NCBI GenBank assembly: GCA_016207565.1
Contig: JACQPK010000402.1
Location: forward strand, 1-38,028
Reading direction: 5' to 3'
DNA from: Elusimicrobiota bacterium
GTDB lineage: Bacteria; Elusimicrobiota; Elusimicrobia; UBA1565; JACRDR01
DNA: 38,028 bases
Numbering within the stretch: position 1 is the stretch's first letter; every line of letters starts with the position of its first letter. The position numbers and the translations under genes were made by a program. Below are positions 1,282-8,599 of the stretch, piece by piece. The notes beneath the pieces are model-generated. The model was given only the letters and a program-made list of their open reading frames with translations, ran no database searches and was not told the origin of the DNA.

Positions 1282-1821
1282 ATGATGACGCTATTTGCGC
1301 TCCTCGCGGGCGCCGCGCTCGCCGCCGACACCACCGCCGCCAAGCCCGCGCAGGAGATGACGGCCGTCTTCGAGCTGTCGGTCCATATCCTGAAGCAAGG
1401 AGACGTGCAGAAGGTCTACGAGAGCATCGTCCGGCGCCTGAGCGACGCCGGGGGCGTGCAGGCCCTCACGGGCCGCCCGGACATGATCGCGTTCTCCTTC
1501 GGGCGGGGCCGGGTCCCCGAGCTCCGCAAGCGTCTCGAGAAGGGCCTCGCCTCGGTCGCCTCGGTCGGCCTCATGCGAGGCAAGGCCGAGAAGCTCGCCC
1601 CGACGTTCGAGGAGCGGCGGGCGCAGGCCCAGAGCGAGATCAAGCTCCTGAACGCCGAGCGCGAGAAGATCTCGGAGGCGCTCGCCAAGGCCCCCCTGAT
1701 CGACGCCTACGTCAAAGAACAGCTCCGGCAGCTCGGTTCGATCGACCCAGCGAAGGAGGAGCGGCAAGGCATCCTGCTCGTGATCGTCGACGGCGCCGAC
1801 CCGCCGGGCCCGCTCAAGTAG
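1282..1821 (+). CDS. Exported hypothetical protein with a coiled-coil-like middle (weak DUF4349-like resemblance)
   Basis: Signal peptide [15 protein letters not shown], high GC3 codon usage and an upstream promoter. Confidence 0.7.
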
Positions 1822-1827
1822 CTCGCC

Positions 1828-1856
1828 TTGACAAAGGCCGGCGCCGCTGTTACCCT
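1828..1856 (+). promoter_or_regulatory. Sigma70-type promoter of the pilin gene
   Basis: TTGACA (1828-1833)-N17-TACCCT (1851-1856) with extended TG. ATG follows 10 nt later with no SD. Confidence 0.7.
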
Positions 1857-1866
1857 GACGGCGTCG

Positions 1867-2367
1867 ATGAAACGTCGTCCTACCGGTTTCACCCTAATCG
1901 AGCTGCTGGTCGTGTGCCTCATCATCGGGATCCTCGCGACGATGGGTCTCAGCCAGTACGCCAAGAGCGTCGAGACCGCCAAAGCCGACGACGCCTTCGC
2001 CTTCACGCAGAGCATCGCGGCCGCCAACCGCATGTACGCCCTCGACCATGGCGGCCGCTACCTCACGGGCACGCTGACCGTCGCCGACTGCCCGACGGGC
2101 GCCGCCGACGACTGCCGGACCAACACGAGCGCGTGCAGCCTGATGTGGTGCGGCTATCTCGCCCGGCAGGACCTCATGCCGAAGCCCTACACCTTCTGCG
2201 CCGGCGACGCCGCCACCGAGTGCGGGGCCGCTTGCGACGCGACGATGGTGGCTTGCTCCCTCCGCAAGTCGCCCGCCTCCACGCCCTACAGCACGTGGGG
2301 GTATACCGTCACCCGGCAGGGGGTCTCCACCGCCTCGGACCCCTCGAATATGCCGGCCGTTCAATAA
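1867..2367 (+). CDS. Type IV pilin (prepilin N-terminal cleavage/methylation domain) with Cys-rich head
   Basis: MKRRPTG|FTLIELLVVCLIIGILATMGLSQYAKSVETAK is a class III signal with Glu5. The globular part has 8 Cys. Confidence 0.92.
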   Translation: MKRRPTGFTLIELLVVCLIIGILATMGLSQYAKSVETAKADDAFAFTQSIAAANRMYALDHGGRYLTGTLTVADCPTGAADDCRTNTSACSLMWCGYLARQDLMPKPYTFCAGDAATECGAACDATMVACSLRKSPASTPYSTWGYTVTRQGVSTASDPSNMPAVQ

Positions 2368-2400
2368 GCTGTAACTTTTTCGCCTCCGCCGTCTATAGGT
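2368..2400 (+). promoter_or_regulatory. ECF-sigma-type promoter, copy 1 (upstream of the Hint protein gene)
   Basis: GCTGTAACTTTTT-N10-GTCTATAGGT, with a near-identical copy at 4205-4237. The -35 AAC and -10 GTC/GAC pattern is typical of ECF promoters. Confidence 0.75.
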
Positions 2401-2434
2401 TGGTGGAAGGCAGGCGCAGGAAGGAGAAAAGTCA

Positions 2435-3544
2435 ATGAAAATAAAGACATTGCTGAGCGCCATCGGGCTCATGTTCGGTCTTTATGGGGTCGCGGCCGCC
2501 CAACTGAGAGGCTCCGCGAGCATCACGGTGCAGGAGTCGAGCGCGCTGGGGCCCACGGGGTGCAACGTCTGCGGCAACGGGTGTTCCCCGGGCAACATGC
2601 GGTCGACGGGCGGCTGGGCCTATGTCTCGCCGTCTGCGTCGGCCGATCCGCGGTGGCCGATCACCGGCATCACCGTCCAGCAGCGCTTCGGCGGTTACGG
2701 CCGCTCCTACGCTTCCTGGGAGACCCAGAACGGCAACTACCAGCAGAGGGCGCTTCCCGACGGCGATGGCTCGCCTTGGCGCGCGGAGCTCTATCGCAAC
2801 ATCAGCAGCTCGTACTGGTGGGGGTATTACCAGTACCGGGCGGTCTGCACCAACGCGGGGGGCAACCTCATCAGCTCGGACGTCTGGGAGAACATCGTCT
2901 CCTGCTTCCTCAAGGGCACGCCGATCCTGATGGCGGACGGGACCTATAAGAAGATCGAGGAGATTCAGATCGGCGACCAGGTGCTCTCCTACGATACCGA
3001 GAATAAGAAGTTCATCCCCAGCGGCGTCGTCAACACCGTGCAGGCCGTCTCGGAGAAGTACTACGTCGTCAACGGCGAGCTGAAGATCACTCCGGCCCAC
3101 CAGCTCTACGTCAACGGCGGCTGGCTCAACTCCGAGTACATGAAGGTCGGCGACACGCTGCTCGGCGAGGATGGACAGCCCGTCACGATCACGTCGCTCG
3201 TGGAGGTCACCGAGACCGTGCCCGTGTACAACCTGATCACCCAAGCGCCGCACGACTTCTTCGCGTCGGGCTTCCTGGTGCACAACATCAACCCGGGCGC
3301 GGAGCACAAGGACCACGGGTTCGGCAAGGGCACGAAGATCGCGCTCGCGGACGGCCGGGTCGTGCCGATCGAAGAGGTCAAGGTCGGAGACAAAGTCGTC
3401 TCCTACGACACCCAGAAAGGGCGCTACACGATCTCCAAGGTCTTGGGCGCCGGCTCGCAGACGGCGAAGAAGACCAAGCTGATCAACGGCACGCTCCGGG
3501 TCGGGGCGAAACAGCCGATGTTCGGCATCGCGAAAGGAAAGTAA
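2435..3544 (+). CDS. Secreted protein: signal peptide, beta-rich N-domain, intact Hint (BIL/intein-like) domain and degenerate N-terminal half-Hint
   Basis: SD AAGGAG and a Sec signal. Hint1 spans aa157-284: CFLKGTPILMADG...TPAH...VYNL...FFASGFLVHN. A second copy at aa295-369 starts GFGKGTKIALADG and stops just after the block B region. Confidence 0.92.
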   Translation: MKIKTLLSAIGLMFGLYGVAAAQLRGSASITVQESSALGPTGCNVCGNGCSPGNMRSTGGWAYVSPSASADPRWPITGITVQQRFGGYGRSYASWETQNGNYQQRALPDGDGSPWRAELYRNISSSYWWGYYQYRAVCTNAGGNLISSDVWENIVSCFLKGTPILMADGTYKKIEEIQIGDQVLSYDTENKKFIPSGVVNTVQAVSEKYYVVNGELKITPAHQLYVNGGWLNSEYMKVGDTLLGEDGQPVTITSLVEVTETVPVYNLITQAPHDFFASGFLVHNINPGAEHKDHGFGKGTKIALADGRVVPIEEVKVGDKVVSYDTQKGRYTISKVLGAGSQTAKKTKLINGTLRVGAKQPMFGIAKGK

Positions 3545-3573
3545 CGTAGCCGAACGAGATCCTTCCGTGAAAC

Positions 3574-3605
3574 AGGGGCAGGTCCTCCCACGAGGACCTG
3601 CCCCT
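3574..3605. terminator. Perfect 14-bp stem-loop without U-tract between the Hint gene and the ECF sigma gene
   Basis: AGGGGCAGGTCCTC-ccac-GAGGACCTGCCCCT. Confidence 0.5.
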
Positions 3606-3614
3606 CGCGTCTCG

Positions 3615-4211
3615 ATGGAAGCGGGCCCCCGAGAGCACGACGAAGACGTCCGCCTGGTTCGCGCCGCCCAGAAGGGCGACGCCGACGCCTTCCGCCGGCT
3701 CATCGAGCGCCACCAAGACCCGGTCTTCGACCTTTGCCTGCGAATGCTCGGCAACCCGCAGGACGCCGAGGACGCCGCCCAAGACACCTTTCTCGCTTTT
3801 TTCCGGCACCTCCGGTCCTACCGGGAGGACCACAAGCTCTCCAACTGGCTCTACACGATCGCGCTCAACCGCTGCCGCCGGCTCTTGCGCAAGCGAAAGC
3901 TGCTCCGGCTGCTGTCGCTCGACTTCTCTTGGGGAGACGAGAACGAGCCCGCCGCGCTCGAAGCCCCGTCCGAGGAGAAGCTCCCGGAGGCCGGCCTCGA
4001 GCAGGCGGAGGCCGAGCGGTGGGCCGCGAAAGTCCTGGCGAGCCTGCCCCCCACCCTCCGCGAGCCGTTCCTTTTGCGCCACGTGAAGAAGATGCACTAC
4101 GAGGAGATCGCGGCCGCGATGAAACTGTCGCTCGCCAACGTCAAGGTCCGCCTCCACCGGGCGAAGCTCTTCCTGCTGAAGCGCTTCGGACCCGGCCCCT
4201 CCGGGCTGTAA
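3615..4211 (+). CDS. ECF-subfamily RNA polymerase sigma factor (alternative start GTG 3567)
   Basis: Region 2: GDADAFRRLIERHQ...DAEDAAQDTFL...LSNWLYTIALNRC. Region 4: LASLPPTLREPFLLRHVKKMHYEEIA...NVKVRLHRAK. Confidence 0.95.
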   Translation: MEAGPREHDEDVRLVRAAQKGDADAFRRLIERHQDPVFDLCLRMLGNPQDAEDAAQDTFLAFFRHLRSYREDHKLSNWLYTIALNRCRRLLRKRKLLRLLSLDFSWGDENEPAALEAPSEEKLPEAGLEQAEAERWAAKVLASLPPTLREPFLLRHVKKMHYEEIAAAMKLSLANVKVRLHRAKLFLLKRFGPGPSGL

Positions 4212-4237
4212 CTTTTTGGGGATTTCGGACTATAGGT
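4205..4237 (+). promoter_or_regulatory. ECF-sigma-type promoter, copy 2 (overlaps the sigma stop codon, upstream of the anti-sigma candidate)
   Basis: GCTGTAACTTTTT-N10-GACTATAGGT, with the same spacing as 2368-2400. Confidence 0.72.
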
Positions 4238-4253
4238 ATCTAGAAGCGACGCC

Positions 4254-4733
4254 ATGGACAGCGGAAAGATAAGTAAGAACAAGGATTTCTTGCTGGCGCT
4301 CGAGCGGTTGTTCGACGGCGCTCGGCCCCATCCCGCGCCGACGCATTTCGCGGACCGGGTCTTGGACCGATGGCGCGAGGAGCCGTCGTGGACGATGGCC
4401 ATGCCCGCGGCGGTCGTCATGGCCTGCGCCACGCTGGCGCTCTTCTTCGCCCTGGGCCGCGCACCGCAGGCGCAGCCGCAGATTCTCGCCTTCGGGTTCG
4501 ACCGGGAATCGATCCCACTCTACCAGCCGGTCACCCTGCGCTGGAAGGTGGCGCACGTCACGCGGGTCCAGATCAAGGTCACGGCGGACGGGGCCATCCT
4601 CAAGGATATGCCGGTGGCTCGGCCGGTGGAATCCGGCGAGCTGACCATGAGCATGAGCCTTCCCGGCCGCTACGGCTTCGAGCTCATCGCCCACACCCCG
4701 CACGGCGCCATCACCCACCGGTTAGGCCGTTAG
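4254..4733 (+). CDS. Putative single-pass anti-sigma factor with an extracytoplasmic Ig/PKD-like domain
   Basis: Lies directly after the ECF gene. It has a short N-domain with APTHFADRVL, a TM segment (MPAAVVMACATLALFFAL) and a beta-rich PQILAF...VTLRWKV...VQI...YGFELIA tail. Confidence 0.72.
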   Translation: MDSGKISKNKDFLLALERLFDGARPHPAPTHFADRVLDRWREEPSWTMAMPAAVVMACATLALFFALGRAPQAQPQILAFGFDRESIPLYQPVTLRWKVAHVTRVQIKVTADGAILKDMPVARPVESGELTMSMSLPGRYGFELIAHTPHGAITHRLGR

Positions 4734-4739
4734 GCGGCA

Positions 4740-4768
4740 TTGACACCCCGTCGGGGGGCTGTTATATT
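4740..4768 (+). promoter_or_regulatory. Sigma70-type promoter of the fibre/minor pilin operon
   Basis: TTGACA (4740-4745)-N17-TATATT (4763-4768) with extended TG. Confidence 0.75.
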
Positions 4769-4797
4769 TCAGATAGCGCTTGCGAGGGCCGTCCAAC

Positions 4798-5205
4798 ATG
4801 GTCACGCATGAGATCACCCTTTCGTTCACCGTCACCCCTTCCCGCGTCCGCCTGGTCCTGGCGGCGGCGCTTTTAGCCGTATTTCCCCAGGCCTCCTCCA
4901 CCCAGGACGTGTCGACCATGGAGCTGTACTACCCGCCCCCCATCACCGCGGTCGACCAGCTCTACGCCGCCGGCACGACCGTGTTGGCCCGGGATTTCGG
5001 CAACGTCTTTCTCGGGCCGGCCAACGCGGGAGGCACCCATCCGCCCGCCTTCGTCGCGATCGCCCCAGCGAACTCGAGCCCGGCTTTGGCCGCGAACCGC
5101 GACATAGGCATCTTGGTTAACGGCACGATGCGGGTCGACGGCTGCATCAGCCTCAAGAACGCCGGCGCGGGCAACGAGAATCTATGGCGGTGCAAATTCC
5201 GATGA
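4798..5205 (+). CDS. Exported fibre-like protein, paralogue 1
   Basis: EITLSF..PSR plus a hydrophobic segment, then YYPPP, TVLARDFGNV and ILVNGTMRVDGCI...WRC. ATGA overlap with the next gene. Confidence 0.75.
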   Translation: MVTHEITLSFTVTPSRVRLVLAAALLAVFPQASSTQDVSTMELYYPPPITAVDQLYAAGTTVLARDFGNVFLGPANAGGTHPPAFVAIAPANSSPALAANRDIGILVNGTMRVDGCISLKNAGAGNENLWRCKFR

Positions 5206-5675
5206 ACAAGAAGGTGCACGAGCTGACGCTCGAGCTGAGGCTCGCGCCCCGGCCTCGCTGGGCCGTCGTCGCGCTGGTGGCCCTGTGCTTGGCGCTGCCG
5301 CCCAACGCGGGAACGGGCGAGAACTGGGGCACGACCGGGCCGGACGGAGGCGCCAACTACCATCCCGTGCCCTCGGGAGTGGTCACCCAGCTTACGGTGA
5401 CCGGCAACTCCGCGCAGGCGGCGTGGCCGGGGAATCCCGTCACCGAGATCGGCTACCAGCCGACGGTCGTGCTGGGACGCGGCGGAACGGGAACGGACAG
5501 CCTGAACCCGCAGACCGTGGTCCTCAATCCCGGCGGCGCGTTCTTCACGGGCATCGGCTTCCCGGCCGCCGGGACGACCGTGCCCACGCAGCACCTCCAC
5601 GTGCGCGGCCACGTGAAAGTCGCCCAGTGCATCTGGATCGGCAGCTCGGCACGCTGCGCGGGCGACTGGCAGTAG
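5202..5675 (+). CDS. Exported fibre-like protein, paralogue 2
   Basis: ELTLELRLAPR plus a hydrophobic segment, then YHPVPSG, TVVLGR and GIGF...LHVRGHVKVAQCIWIGSSARCAGDW. Confidence 0.75.
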   Translation: MNKKVHELTLELRLAPRPRWAVVALVALCLALPPNAGTGENWGTTGPDGGANYHPVPSGVVTQLTVTGNSAQAAWPGNPVTEIGYQPTVVLGRGGTGTDSLNPQTVVLNPGGAFFTGIGFPAAGTTVPTQHLHVRGHVKVAQCIWIGSSARCAGDWQ

Positions 5676-5683
5676 GGGCCTCC

Positions 5684-6874
5684 ATGGAGCGCGAATTCCG
5701 CCTCCGCCTCCGCCTCCCCCGCTCGACCGCTCAGGCCACGCTCGTCGCCGCTCTCCTCGCCTGGCCGGGCTCGGTGCTTTGTCCGGTGCAGCAGACCGCC
5801 GTCATGGTCGGCTACCTCGCGGACGAGGCCCGCCCGGTGACGACGAACTTCCTGGCTTCGAACCAAAAGACCGTGCTCGGCGCGAGCGGCCACGTCATCA
5901 TGGTCCCGGGAGACTGCTACCCGGCCCGGAACACGACCGTTTACGGCTGCGGGGCGGCGCCGGGCAGCCCCAACCCGACCACCTGCGGCACCCGAGTCAC
6001 GGCCAGCCCGCTCAAAATGCCCGCCTCGGGCGGAGCCGACTACAACAATTCCGGCACGGGCAGCCCGAGCTGCTACAACCCCGCGTGCAACAGCGGCAGC
6101 ACCTGCACCGCCAACAGCGCGGTGCCGCTCCGGCGCGTCTACGCGGTGAACCGGGCGAAGCCGGTGTCTCAGGCCGACGTCGGCAGCCCGGACATCCTGC
6201 GCGTCGACGGCGACATCCGCGTCAACCGCCTCTGCTTCTGGGACGAATGCCGGACGGATTGGCCCTTCGAGTTCCAAGACTGCTCCGTCGGCGGCTGCAC
6301 CCCCGAAAACTCCGACTGCATGCCGGACGGGACGCCGCCGCCCGCGTGCCAGACGAGCGGTACGCGGGGACAGATCCGGACGGTCACCTACAACTGGTCG
6401 ATCCCCGGCTCGACCGCGGCCGCCGGGGTCGATAGCCCGTGGGTGTTCCGGTTCGGGATCGTGGGGAACAACGCCGGCGTGACCGGCGGCGACAGCTGCA
6501 CCGGCTCGCCGGTCGGCTGCGAGATCGGTTTTCCCCTCCCCCAGTCGAGCCCGCCGGCGGGCTACAGCTACCCGTCCGTGACCTCGGGCAGCCGACCCGA
6601 CTCGAAGGCCGCCGAGCCGTCGACGTGGCAGCTCAACACGACCATGACCGTCAACCAGGGCTCCGGGGCCGTGACGCTCACGATCCGCTGCCGCATCTGG
6701 TATCCGCCGTCGGAGTTCAGCCAGACGAAAGGCAAGTGCGAGATCATCATCCCGATCCAGACCGTCGCGCAGTCGGTGAACACCTACAACTTCTCGCCCA
6801 CGTCGTTCTGCCAGGAGCGCTACCTCACGAGCGACGAGCGCTACGCGGCCTGTCCGGTGGTGGTGGCCCCGTGA
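5684..6874 (+). CDS. Exported Cys-rich fibre/adhesin-like protein, paralogue 3, with a C-terminal beta-rich head
   Basis: EFRLRLRLPR plus a hydrophobic segment, then KTVLGASGHV and ILRVDGDIRVNRLCFWDECRTDWP. About 19 Cys. GTGA overlap with the next gene. Confidence 0.78.
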   Translation: MEREFRLRLRLPRSTAQATLVAALLAWPGSVLCPVQQTAVMVGYLADEARPVTTNFLASNQKTVLGASGHVIMVPGDCYPARNTTVYGCGAAPGSPNPTTCGTRVTASPLKMPASGGADYNNSGTGSPSCYNPACNSGSTCTANSAVPLRRVYAVNRAKPVSQADVGSPDILRVDGDIRVNRLCFWDECRTDWPFEFQDCSVGGCTPENSDCMPDGTPPPACQTSGTRGQIRTVTYNWSIPGSTAAAGVDSPWVFRFGIVGNNAGVTGGDSCTGSPVGCEIGFPLPQSSPPAGYSYPSVTSGSRPDSKAAEPSTWQLNTTMTVNQGSGAVTLTIRCRIWYPPSEFSQTKGKCEIIIPIQTVAQSVNTYNFSPTSFCQERYLTSDERYAACPVVVAP

Positions 6875-7374
6875 GCCGCCGGCGGCGACGGAACGGATTC
6901 ACGCTCATCGAGATCTGCGTTGCCGCGCTCTTGATCGCGATCGGCGCGACGGCGCTGTTCGCGGTCGCGCTGTCGACGCGGAGAACGGTCGCGGTAAGCC
7001 CGCTCCGCGAGCAGATGAACCAGTACGCGCGGCTGCTGTCGGAGAGCCTCAAGGGCTACGTCACGGCGTGCCTCCCGGGCGCCGTGTCCACCGCCTGCCC
7101 GGCGTCGATCACCGACGCCGCCCGCAACGCGGGCGCGCCGCACGGCACGTGGGCCCTCAGCAAGCCCGACGGGACGGACTGCGGGACCGACGGCTACAAC
7201 TGGGCCCTCGACGCGGCGGACGCCGACAATCCCCACGACGCCTCCTGCTTTCTTCCCGCCGAGCTGACGTCGGCGCCTCCGGACGGCGCCAACGCGACCC
7301 TCAAGTACACGGTGGCGGTCGCCGACGGCGCCCGGAAGTTCGAGATCATCATGGCGTGGGAGGAGCCGGACTGA
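6871..7374 (+). CDS. Minor pilin/pseudopilin, PilV/GspI-like
   Basis: GTG start coupled to the upstream stop. MSRRRRRNG|FTLIEICVAALLIAIG; C-terminal FEIIMAWEEP strand. Confidence 0.85.
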   Translation: MSRRRRRNGFTLIEICVAALLIAIGATALFAVALSTRRTVAVSPLREQMNQYARLLSESLKGYVTACLPGAVSTACPASITDAARNAGAPHGTWALSKPDGTDCGTDGYNWALDAADADNPHDASCFLPAELTSAPPDGANATLKYTVAVADGARKFEIIMAWEEPD

Positions 7375-8174
7375 TGGCCTCTCCGGCTCTCGCTTCCGAA
7401 GAGGGCTTCTCCATGATCGAGCTCATGGTGGTCGTCATGCTGATGGCGGTCATCATGCTCGGGCTCTTCTCGCTGCAGGACGCGCTGCTCCAGCAGCGAG
7501 GCCGCATCCTCCGCAACGTCGCCGTGCGCAACCAGAACGATCTCGCGCGGCGGACCATGCTGCGCGAGCTCGCCTCGGCGACGGTGGTCCTCGAGCCGCA
7601 GACCGGGATGGCGAGCGACAACATCGTCGGCTGGAAGAACCTCGATCCCTCCACGATCATCTGCTGCGGCGCCACGACCTACTCGTGCATCTCGTGCGTG
7701 CCGAGCGCGACGAACCTCCGGACGAACGCCCCGAACCCCGCGACGTGCACCTGCGGGAACCTGGGAACCGAGCCGGCCCGGGCGCTGTCGACCACGGGCG
7801 CGGGCGACGAGGCCCTGATCCAGTGGTTCCGGTTCTGCTTTGACGACACGGTCGCCGACGACGCCAACCGGACGCCGCGCATCGTCTATTACAGCGGCAC
7901 GGGATTCAATGCAGGGGGCGTCTTGCCGGCCGACGCGACCGAGATCTGCGGCGATGGCGACGCGGCCCAGCCGATCGGGGGGTTCGACGGAGTCTCGATC
8001 GCGAAGACCGGAGCAAGCCTCTTCAGCCGTCCGCGCCACAACTGGGTCGATATCAATTTTTCCGCGTTCGTCGAGCGGCCCGTTCCGTCCACGGGGCAGG
8101 TCGAGACGGCCAAGGCCGAGACGCATGTCGGAGTCACGCTGATGACCGGCAACATCGCGTCGGCGAGGTGGTGA
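7374..8174 (+). CDS. Minor pilin/pseudopilin, PilW/GspJ-like
   Basis: TGATG coupling. EEG|FSMIELMVVVMLMAVIMLG followed by a long helix ending MLRELASA. Confidence 0.85.
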   Translation: MASPALASEEGFSMIELMVVVMLMAVIMLGLFSLQDALLQQRGRILRNVAVRNQNDLARRTMLRELASATVVLEPQTGMASDNIVGWKNLDPSTIICCGATTYSCISCVPSATNLRTNAPNPATCTCGNLGTEPARALSTTGAGDEALIQWFRFCFDDTVADDANRTPRIVYYSGTGFNAGGVLPADATEICGDGDAAQPIGGFDGVSIAKTGASLFSRPRHNWVDINFSAFVERPVPSTGQVETAKAETHVGVTLMTGNIASARW

Positions 8175-8599
8175 TGCGAAGCGAGCGCGGCGTGGTCCTG
8201 GTGCACGTCATGATCCTCATCACGCTCATGGCGTGGCTCGCGTCCATGTTCCTCAGCTCCGTGCTTTCCCGTCAGATCAACGCCAAGCAAAGCATGAAGA
8301 GCTCCGAGGTCCGCGCCGCGATGAACGCGGCGGCGGCCCGGATCACGAGCTGCCTCGCGAGCGTGGGGTTTCCCGTGGGAACCACGTGCGCCAGCGCCCT
8401 GCCGGTCTCGCAGGAGGCCGCCTTCCAGGCCTGCCACGGCGGCACTTCGCCCACGGAGTTCACCATCGCCGACACCGACAGCCTCGCGGTGCGGCCCGTC
8501 ACCTTCGCCATCTGCGCCACGCCCGCGAACCCGCCCTGCCGGTTTCGCATCAACGTTTGCGAGCCGGGGGACACCTGCCCGGCGCCGACCTGCCCTTAA
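8174..8599 (+). CDS. Minor pilin/pseudopilin, PilX/GspK-like
   Basis: TGATG coupling. MRSERG|VVLVHVMILITLM lacks Glu5, the PilX/GspK hallmark. Cys-rich. Confidence 0.8.
   Translation: MRSERGVVLVHVMILITLMAWLASMFLSSVLSRQINAKQSMKSSEVRAAMNAAAARITSCLASVGFPVGTTCASALPVSQEAAFQACHGGTSPTEFTIADTDSLAVRPVTFAICATPANPPCRFRINVCEPGDTCPAPTCP

Follow-up and report, generated by a model that had tools for sequence, protein, structure and literature searches.

A candidate ECF sigma factor circuit around secreted Hint proteins in uncultured Elusimicrobia

Genes and promoters of the locus

The window analyzed here is a stretch of 38,028 nucleotides, one contig of a metagenome-assembled Elusimicrobiota genome (GenBank assembly GCA_016207565.1, contig JACQPK010000402.1; 4.95 Mb, 77.5% complete). 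Its plus strand carries three co-oriented genes, for a secreted Hint-domain protein, a sigma factor of the extracytoplasmic function (ECF) type and a membrane protein predicted to cross the membrane once. They are flanked by the stop codon of a pilin gene and by a sigma-70-type promoter. The initial annotation of this DNA had given the placement of the genes, their shared orientation and both borders, and all of these agreed with the open reading frames (ORFs), the Pfam matches and a promoter scan. The three-gene arrangement is more than chance because the same order recurs in relatives. We favor, with more confidence than doubt, the view that the genes form a conserved ECF sigma circuit in a narrow clade, a small group of uncultured groundwater Elusimicrobia, with a regulon of related Hint (bacterial intein-like) proteins that would be secreted and process themselves.

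The type IV pilin-like gene adjoining the trio upstream (1828-2367, stop codon at 2365-2367) had a Pfam N_methyl match (1.5e-07) and a TIGR02532 match above the cut-off. Three nucleotides past its stop codon, and 64 nt 5′ of the Hint start codon, lies a motif of the ECF promoter type, TGTAACTTTTT-N12-CTATAGGT, which we call P1 (2370-2400). The Hint gene (2435-3544, 369 aa) matched the Pfam families Hom_end_hint (4.2e-20) and PT-HINT (8.4e-15). Between its stop codon and the sigma start there is a perfect 13-bp GC-rich hairpin (3575-3604) without a T-run after it. The sigma gene (3615-4211) encodes 198 aa from the ATG at 3615, in an ORF that is open from a GTG at 3567. A second copy of the motif, P2 (4207-4237), is built across the end of this gene: its GTAAC includes the sigma stop codon TAA (4209-4211), and it lies 46 nt 5′ of the start of the third gene (4254-4733), which encodes a putative anti-sigma factor of 159 aa. 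The sigma-70-type promoter of the next transcription unit (4740-4768, TTGACA-17-TATATT) has 11 of 12 matches and a TG before the −10 box; there was one such site, compared with 0.3 in shuffled sequences. All these features are on the plus strand.

The Hint protein consists of a signal peptide (aa 1-23), a variable N-domain with four cysteines (aa 24-156), a Hint domain extending from Cys157 to His283-Asn284 (aa 157-284, nt 2903-3286), and a tail that begins with Ile285 (aa 285-369, nt 3287-3541). The 85 residues of the tail are basic (16 Lys/Arg vs 7 Asp/Glu) and form a half-Hint that lacks cysteine. They repeat the N-terminal half of the Hint domain (residues ~158-226 against ~297-365, 35% identity over 68 aa, E = 2e-16); the position of the Cys is taken by Gly. 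The tail is well conserved in the family, in which Gly295, Asp306, Gly307, Gly318, Val336 and Asn351 are invariant.

Cys157, His222, His283 and Asn284 were invariant in 19 family members, and the block B motif of the window protein is TPAH. At the +1 position, Ile in the window protein, only 1 of the 19 members has a nucleophile (Thr). The PT-HINT model scored 55.7 bits against a cut-off of 27.7, and the Pfam Hint models were above their cut-offs. The nearest solved chains were the Hint domain of an ADP-ribosyltransferase (4e-21) and the bacterial intein-like (BIL) domain 2lwy (E = 2.2e-18). The protein has the residues that define the HINT superfamily and A-type BIL domains, namely Cys1, Thr-x-x-His in block B and His-Asn. 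It would be exported via its Sec signal peptide and then probably cut at Cys157 through a thioester and after Asn284 through a succinimide. Such cleavage would free the variable N-domain and the conserved basic half-Hint tail.

Two other readings of the protein were rejected. An intein does not fit the missing +1 nucleophile or the flanks: instead of the two parts of a split conserved protein, there is a variable N-domain on one side and a half-Hint on the other. Polymorphic toxins are, to our knowledge, the one better-understood use of bacterial intein-like domains. In the present protein the polarity is reversed, with a varying N-terminal part and a conserved C-terminal part, the next gene is for a sigma factor, and we saw no toxin domain or immunity gene at the locus. 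The family is rare: eight near full-length homologs were found in the database, in bins labelled Elusimicrobia, NC10 and Chloroflexota.

The sigma factor matched Sigma70_r2 (1.5e-19) and Sigma70_r4_2 (9.6e-14) in Pfam and passed the ECF superfamily model TIGR02937 (99.5 bits, cut-off 42.9). With regions 2 and 4 only, it belongs to the ECF sigma factors (group 4). Its start was placed at ATG 3615 by alignment with orthologs, which are 51-60% identical. The closest solved homolog was Bacillus subtilis SigW (5wuq, E = 2.4e-34). The scores fell below the SigW equivalog cut-offs of NCBIfam (NF007223 / TIGR02948; 121.6 vs 209 bits and 106.2 vs 243.1 bits), and by these sequence comparisons the protein is SigW-like and not a SigW ortholog.

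The promoter motif, its predicted targets and the relatives

The 31-nt sequence TGTAACTTTTT-N12-CTATAGGT was matched twice in the window and never in shuffled sequences, and P1 and P2 are its sole two copies in the 4.95-Mb genome. When the 8-mer GTAACTTT was derived from P1 and P2 alone, it had eight occurrences in the genome. The six other sites include the upstream regions of Hint paralogs (contigs C368 and C482), of a pilin gene (C21), of a gene for a 428-aa secreted protein (C87) and of a gene for a 117-aa protein (C255). The 117-aa protein is of the PilZ type; the gene on C21 encodes a type IV pilin and stands beside a PilC-like gene. In the consensus, TGTAACyTT-N14-cGTATA, 16 nt separate an AAC −35 and its T-tract from a CGTA-type −10. 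An AAC −35 combined with a group-specific −10 at the locus of the sigma gene itself, the arrangement typical of ECF promoters, is found at P1 and P2, and we infer that this sigma reads them.

For a scan of the genome we fixed the pattern as GTAACYT-N15-16-VTAHA and used the same pattern reversed as the control. There were eight matches, compared with none for the control. All eight lay 46-64 nt 5′ of an ORF with high GC at third codon positions and in the correct orientation: four Hint genes, the third gene of the trio, the pilin gene, the gene for the C87 secreted protein and the PilZ gene. Variants of the motif were spotted by eye before two more Hint genes, C482a and C482b, the latter one also following a hairpin. 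When these two variants are counted, six of the seven Hint transcription units that have upstream sequence are preceded by the motif. The Hint paralogs of this genome are on contigs C322, C231, C368 (two), C482 (a tandem pair) and C480 (a fragment).

That the Hint protein is an output of the ECF sigma, as the initial annotation proposed, is very probable, given the ECF-type motif before this gene and its paralogs in the window genome and in relatives. The same annotation had described the module as self-contained. This description does not hold, as the motif is also found upstream of unlinked Hint paralogs, a second secreted family, a pilin gene near a PilC-like gene, and a PilZ gene.

Several members of this set have features of their own. 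On C482 (L021:2494-4855, minus strand), the tandem Hint paralogs each have a motif, and the GC-rich hairpin between them follows a Hint gene just as the hairpin of the window does. The C87 secreted proteins (~430 aa; L023:2919-4205, minus strand; relatives L106, L107, L110 and L112) have an N-terminal Ig-like stretch followed by conserved SGSRY and GNPWGNGDY, and they had no Pfam or NCBIfam match. An ECF-type motif lies upstream of genes of this family in the window genome, in the relatives G001 and G033, and in two copies in the relative G002, and these proteins seem to be conserved partners of the Hint family under shared regulation. There are also longer Hint-containing proteins (~520-780 aa; C351, C202 and C196 in the window genome, G001:C23, G002:C107) with Gly/Thr-rich linkers and without the half-Hint tail. 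No motif was noticed by eye in the DNA upstream of the C351 gene, the sole member viewed; no search was made.

We surveyed 61 genomes of the order, the window genome included. The third protein of the trio was present in six of them (E = 2.5e-9 or better), and the Hint family was present in seven, the same six and G001. The genomes that share both belong to four genera in two families, and as kin they are not independent. Matches in G004 (E = 0.0019) and G050 (E = 0.0068) covered 30-35 residues, and these genomes were not counted among the carriers of the third protein; in G004 there was no sigma or Hint gene near the weak match.

The order Hint, sigma, membrane protein was found in four of the five relatives that have the membrane protein (G039, G031, G023 and G033). 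In the metagenomes, contig L117, with a sigma 77% identical to that of the window, has the same order followed by a gene of the family found at 4780 in the window (see below), and contig L118, with a sigma 50% identical, has a Hint and a sigma gene before the contig ends. In the fifth relative, G002, the order is secA, pilin, sigma, membrane protein, and the Hint gene lies 4.5 kb away on the opposite strand, at the far end of a cluster of pilin-like genes. The G002 pilin directly 5′ of sigma is the ortholog (50% identity) of the pilin encoded at 1828-2367. The initial annotation had taken the three genes for a unit, and the survey of sigma neighborhoods, with the order recurring in G039, G031, G023, G033 and L117, bears out that this unit is conserved. 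The association is a narrow one. A Hint gene was near only five of the best 80 sigma-related loci in species genomes, and near only the top two of the best 80 in metagenomes. Two Hint-family genes of relatives, L012 (G031:C60:2200-3400) and G002:C179:5723-6798, appeared frameshifted, with the match resuming in a different frame, which could reflect errors of assembly or pseudogenes.

The motif is conserved along with the genes. P1 was upstream of the Hint gene in six of six genomes. P2 was found across the sigma stop codon in the window genome, G039, G031, G033, G002 and contig L117. Eighteen motif sites could be aligned without gaps, with GTAAC, G22, T25, A26 and A28 invariant. When five genomes of relatives were scanned with the fixed pattern, ten matches were found to precede Hint-family genes, which accounts for 10 of the 12 full-length Hint loci there. 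Three more precede the third gene, four precede homologs of the C87 family and one precedes the pilin ortholog; the rest are mixed or unclear.

Several observations weigh against the view set out above. The link between this sigma and the motif is drawn from position and co-occurrence, and the probable self-cleavage of the Hint protein is judged from its residues. The window genome has at least eight other, distant ECF sigma paralogs, and no motif match was found upstream of the Hint paralog on C231. The fixed pattern is less specific in the relatives scanned since it had 23 matches in five genomes compared with 18 for the reversed control, and it does not match at the Hint loci G001:C261 and G033:C158. 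The G001:C261 gene, which is followed by a hairpin, is a paralog and does not correspond to the sigma-linked copy. In G023, P2 is absent, and the sigma gene and the third gene overlap by ATGA. In G001, which belongs to the same genus as the window genome and has motif-bearing Hint paralogs, neither the membrane protein nor a sigma ortholog was found (the best match, 41% identical, is a paralog).

The motif could be read by a different sigma, another ECF sigma or a shared one, in which case the adjacency of the Hint and sigma genes would be a conserved neighborhood without a direct regulatory link. The eight other paralogs and the G001 Hint genes are in keeping with this, as is the possible overlap in promoter recognition among ECF sigmas of the AAC/CGT type (PMC5758882). 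Yet the motif is built into the stop codon of this very sigma gene in five genomes and one metagenome contig, and it stands before the gene directly upstream of sigma in six of six genomes. No other ECF gene is on any Hint contig of the window genome, and the Hint family and the module share a patchy distribution (6 of 61 genomes, 4 genera). G001 is only 79% complete and is in 510 contigs, which lessens the weight of its missing sigma. We regard a different sigma as very unlikely, and we retain the view that the ECF sigma encoded at 3615-4211 reads the TGTAACyTT-N14-cGTATA promoters.

The membrane protein and transcription of the locus

The third protein is predicted to have 46 cytoplasmic residues, one hydrophobic segment (aa 49-67; hydropathy KD19 2.21) and an outer domain of ~90 aa. 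It has no paralog in the window genome. In every locus with both genes, its gene is directly downstream of the sigma gene. The 46 cytoplasmic residues have a conserved pattern, F-x(15)-AP-x2-(L/F)A-x-R(V/I). The proteins encoded just after the nearest sigma homologs without a Hint gene were zf-HC2 anti-sigmas or degenerate forms of them. When compared by hhalign with the stretch that follows the zinc finger in such proteins, the N-terminus matched L029 at 93%, an alignment of seven sequences at 92.5% (E = 5e-7), and a true zf-HC2 protein at 22%. It is plausible from this comparison that the cytoplasmic N-terminus is a shortened class I-type anti-sigma domain, outside the zf-HC2 family as defined. 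An anti-sigma role for the whole protein is plausible on the basis of its position and this one remote similarity. In two relatives of the protein, P0065 and L032:3859-4410, the cytoplasmic F-x(15)-AP-x2-LA-x-R motif occurs twice in tandem.

Other results count against the anti-sigma assignment. The protein matched no Pfam or NCBIfam family. Among 13 family members there was no match to zf-HC2 (PF13490) at E up to 1, and none to another anti-sigma Pfam family. Residues 1-46 contain no Cys, so that the H-x3-C-x2-C zinc motif and the first half of a class I domain are lacking; only the post-zinc-finger segment aligns, and the protein falls outside the class I zinc-finger (zf-HC2) anti-sigmas. 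A profile of the N-terminus, compared with solved structures, gave chance-level matches and no anti-sigma. In G002, the ORF of the ortholog begins after the N-terminal segment, and this ortholog may lack the segment altogether.

The outer domain is of a different kind. A profile of six orthologs matched 3488 proteins, mostly giant multi-repeat proteins that matched at positions ~50-150 only; about 11 were full-length relatives of 125-197 aa. Of five giant repeat proteins that were sampled, two reached the Pfam PKD cut-off (one of them also matching InlK_D3 and I-set), and a third had no match at all. The profile of the whole third protein had weak PKD/FN3 matches among solved structures, in the F-strand region only. 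Because the domain recurs in giant repeat proteins, some of which match PKD, it may be a common PKD/Ig-like module, although the evidence is weak or indirect.

These results leave room for a second explanation, in which the sigma drives the Hint family and the 159-aa protein is another member of the regulon, a membrane-anchored PKD/Ig-like surface protein made from P2. The sigma would then be controlled otherwise, for example transcriptionally. Such a protein might well have a promoter-like motif of its own rather than simple co-translation with sigma, a cytoplasmic part of only 46 residues without an anti-sigma family or structural match, an ortholog that starts past this part (G002), and an outer domain shared with 3488 mostly giant surface proteins. 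It would be less expected to follow the sigma gene in every locus, with the ATGA overlap in G023, or to have an N-terminus that hhalign places on the second half of neighboring anti-sigma domains. It would also differ from the other regulon members in having no paralog in the genome. We consider this explanation unlikely, and take the membrane protein to be most likely the anti-sigma factor.

The DNA between the Hint and sigma genes is predicted to fold strongly (3540-3620, −40.7 kcal/mol, z = −5.8; none of 200 shuffled sequences equalled this). In five loci (window, G039, G031, G023 and G033) the Hint stop codon is followed by a GC-rich hairpin, and there is one after the paralog C482a as well. 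The T-run after the hairpin is absent in the window, and G023 is similar; it is present in G039, G031 and G033. In the window genome, P1 would drive the adjacent Hint gene, and its transcripts probably continue through the T-less hairpin into the sigma gene, which would amount to positive autoregulation. In G039, G031 and G033, the hairpin and T-run resemble a terminator and are followed by a TACAAT −10-like box between Hint and sigma, with TG upstream in two of them, and in these genomes the sigma gene is probably transcribed from a housekeeping promoter of its own. Positive autoregulation by way of P1 thus does not hold throughout the clade. This point, and the fact that start sites, induction and operon structure are all read from the DNA, temper the model of the circuit given here. 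The sequencing runs listed as containing 2300-4800 were four DNA runs from a single groundwater study, with no RNA run among them.

In this model, P2 would drive the membrane protein. With P2 ahead of it, the third gene would be sigma-dependent, and thereby a negative-feedback arm. The cytoplasmic N-terminus of the membrane protein would hold the sigma, and its outer PKD/Ig-like domain would sense an envelope or surface cue. The same type of promoter elsewhere in the genome would drive five more Hint paralogs, the second secreted family, the type IV pilin gene and the PilZ protein.

A further proposal, made in the initial annotation, is that the Ig-like domain of the anti-sigma has as its ligand a released Hint fragment (N-domain or half-Hint tail), giving autocrine feedback or cell-to-cell signaling tied to the pilus. 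The conserved adjacency of the genes, an outer domain of a binding type, the strong conservation of the half-Hint tail and the pilin context are all compatible with such a loop. Against it, the Hint gene is not adjacent in G002, and at least six paralogs with differing N-domains would have to act on a single sensor. A homology between the outer domain and the Hint N-domains was also considered and dropped, as the hhalign matches of the anti-sigma profile were insignificant with a Hint paralog (16%), the window Hint protein (0.2%) and the C87 secreted family (2.4%). We find the ligand loop improbable. Equally doubtful is a broader, Hedgehog-style form of bacterial signaling, in which ECF-induced Hint proteins would cut themselves and one piece, the conserved basic half-Hint tail or a variable N-domain, would either bind to the PKD/Ig-like domain of the anti-sigma or be passed by way of the thioester to a pilus or envelope component sensed by that domain, closing a feedback or cell-to-cell loop coupled to the type IV filament.

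Neighboring genes and known systems

Downstream of the trio, paralogs of 141, 163 and 396 aa from an unnamed family (no Pfam or NCBIfam family) are encoded by three genes on the plus strand (4780-5205, 5184-5675 and 5684-6874). The proteins share an unusual N-terminus, M-x-THE-I-x-L/F, then an R-rich part and a hydrophobic stretch, and have a pair of Cys at the C-terminus. Next come two minor-pilin-like genes with N_methyl matches (6871-7374 and 7374-8174, plus strand; Pfam 8.1e-06 and 2.8e-04), which also had weak matches to TIGR02523 PilV and GspH/GspJ, and an ORF of 143 aa (8168-8599, plus strand). Together these genes form a small pilin cluster (1282-8599) that is flanked by secA and a Mur ligase gene; the remainder of the window is housekeeping. 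The cluster begins with a gene for a 179-aa protein (1282-1821), between secA and the pilin gene, which has a signal-peptide-like start, no family and one weak paralog on C275. It was not seen in the module loci of relatives.

By tblastn, genes of the 4780/5184 family adjoin the module in G039, G031, G023, G002 and L117, and are 3 kb away in G033. Since this family and the prepilin-type genes travel with the trio, the conserved unit is larger than three genes, and in this respect too the module is not the self-contained one first described. The 4780 protein had only five database homologs. Two of them are on contigs of 6808 and 6939 bp, the same sizes as the contigs of two Hint homologs, which suggests that the two families are on shared contigs there. 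Always found with the sigma module and upstream of prepilin-type genes, the 4780-6874 genes may encode unusual filament components.

Hint domains were also found fused to pilins. In P0011, P0014 and P0022, distant Hint domains (34-42% identical) are inside proteins that open with a prepilin GFT(L/I)xE motif. The fusions tie this Hint subfamily to the proteins of type IV filaments. The source of P0014 labels it Omnitrophica. In two of the three fusions the protein continues for ~90 residues past the His-Asn, which looks like insertion of the Hint domain into a pilin-like protein without a +1 nucleophile. These Omnitrophica-type fusions differ from the locus described here, where pilin and Hint protein are encoded by separate genes, and they have no half-Hint tail of the present type.

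The best-studied counterpart of the sigma and its partner is SigW/RsiW. RsiW is a one-pass zinc-finger anti-sigma factor that is removed by proteolysis. SigW was both the closest solved homolog and the best NCBIfam match of the sigma described here, and in both systems the sigma gene is followed by a gene for a one-pass membrane protein. SigW belongs to ECF01 and SigV to ECF30, and SigW promoters combine TGAAAC, a T-tract and a CGTA −10 (PMC5758882), the same grammar of AAC −35, T-tract, 16 nt and CGTA −10 as in the present motif. In contrast to RsiW, the partner in the window would have an anti-sigma domain reduced to its second half; it has no zinc motif, and its outer domain is PKD/Ig-like. 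The internal promoter across the sigma stop codon is another difference, and in place of detoxification genes the predicted targets are genes for Hint proteins, a pilin and a PilZ protein.

The Hint protein resembles A-type BIL domains in having Cys1, the block B His, a C-terminal His-Asn and no +1 nucleophile within a variable, non-conserved secreted host, and in its match to 2lwy. A-type BIL domains are described as ending in His-Asn, being located in variable regions of non-conserved proteins and being cut at their N- or C-terminal ends, and the role given for BIL domains, in post-translational protein variability, is a proposed one (PMC7765530, citing Amitai 2003 and Dassa 2004). The Cys-less half-Hint and lysine-rich tail after His-Asn, and the tie to an ECF promoter and a sigma gene, set the present protein apart; the treatment of BIL domains in PMC7765530 mentions neither a half-Hint tail nor an ECF link.

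Two further comparisons are possible. As in Hedgehog and nematode Hog proteins (PMC7765530), a signal peptide and a variable N-domain precede a conserved Hint domain, the first Cys of which would release or transfer the N-domain. The present protein is bacterial, has no sterol-recognition region and has the terminal His-Asn, and there is no evidence of lipid or other transfer. Pretoxin-HINT proteins are similar in that the PT-HINT model was matched above its cut-off; the reversed polarity described above separates the present protein from them.

The initial annotation knew of no described ECF system built around a Hint protein. None was found in the literature covered, which included the main text of the ECF re-classification (Casas-Pastor 2021, PMC7826278). 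That text has no Hint, intein, Elusimicrobia or pilin; its supplementary tables of groups and neighborhoods, which may bear on this, were outside the scope. ECF systems and BIL domains are each known already. What stands out is the putative half-length anti-sigma domain, the predicted promoter in a stop codon and the tail formed by a half-Hint.

These conclusions concern a narrow clade of uncultured organisms, and all that goes beyond the sequence is inferred. Within these bounds, the locus would be unusual in the design of ECF systems, with a predicted half-length anti-sigma domain, a predicted feedback promoter inside the sigma stop codon, and a predicted self-processing protein as the output. 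It would provide a first regulatory handle on bacterial intein-like proteins, a family of which is placed here in a predicted regulon that has its own sigma, a clear promoter and a link to pilin genes. It may also offer a concrete route to the biology of BIL domains, in the form of a transferable three-gene system with defined targets and point mutants.

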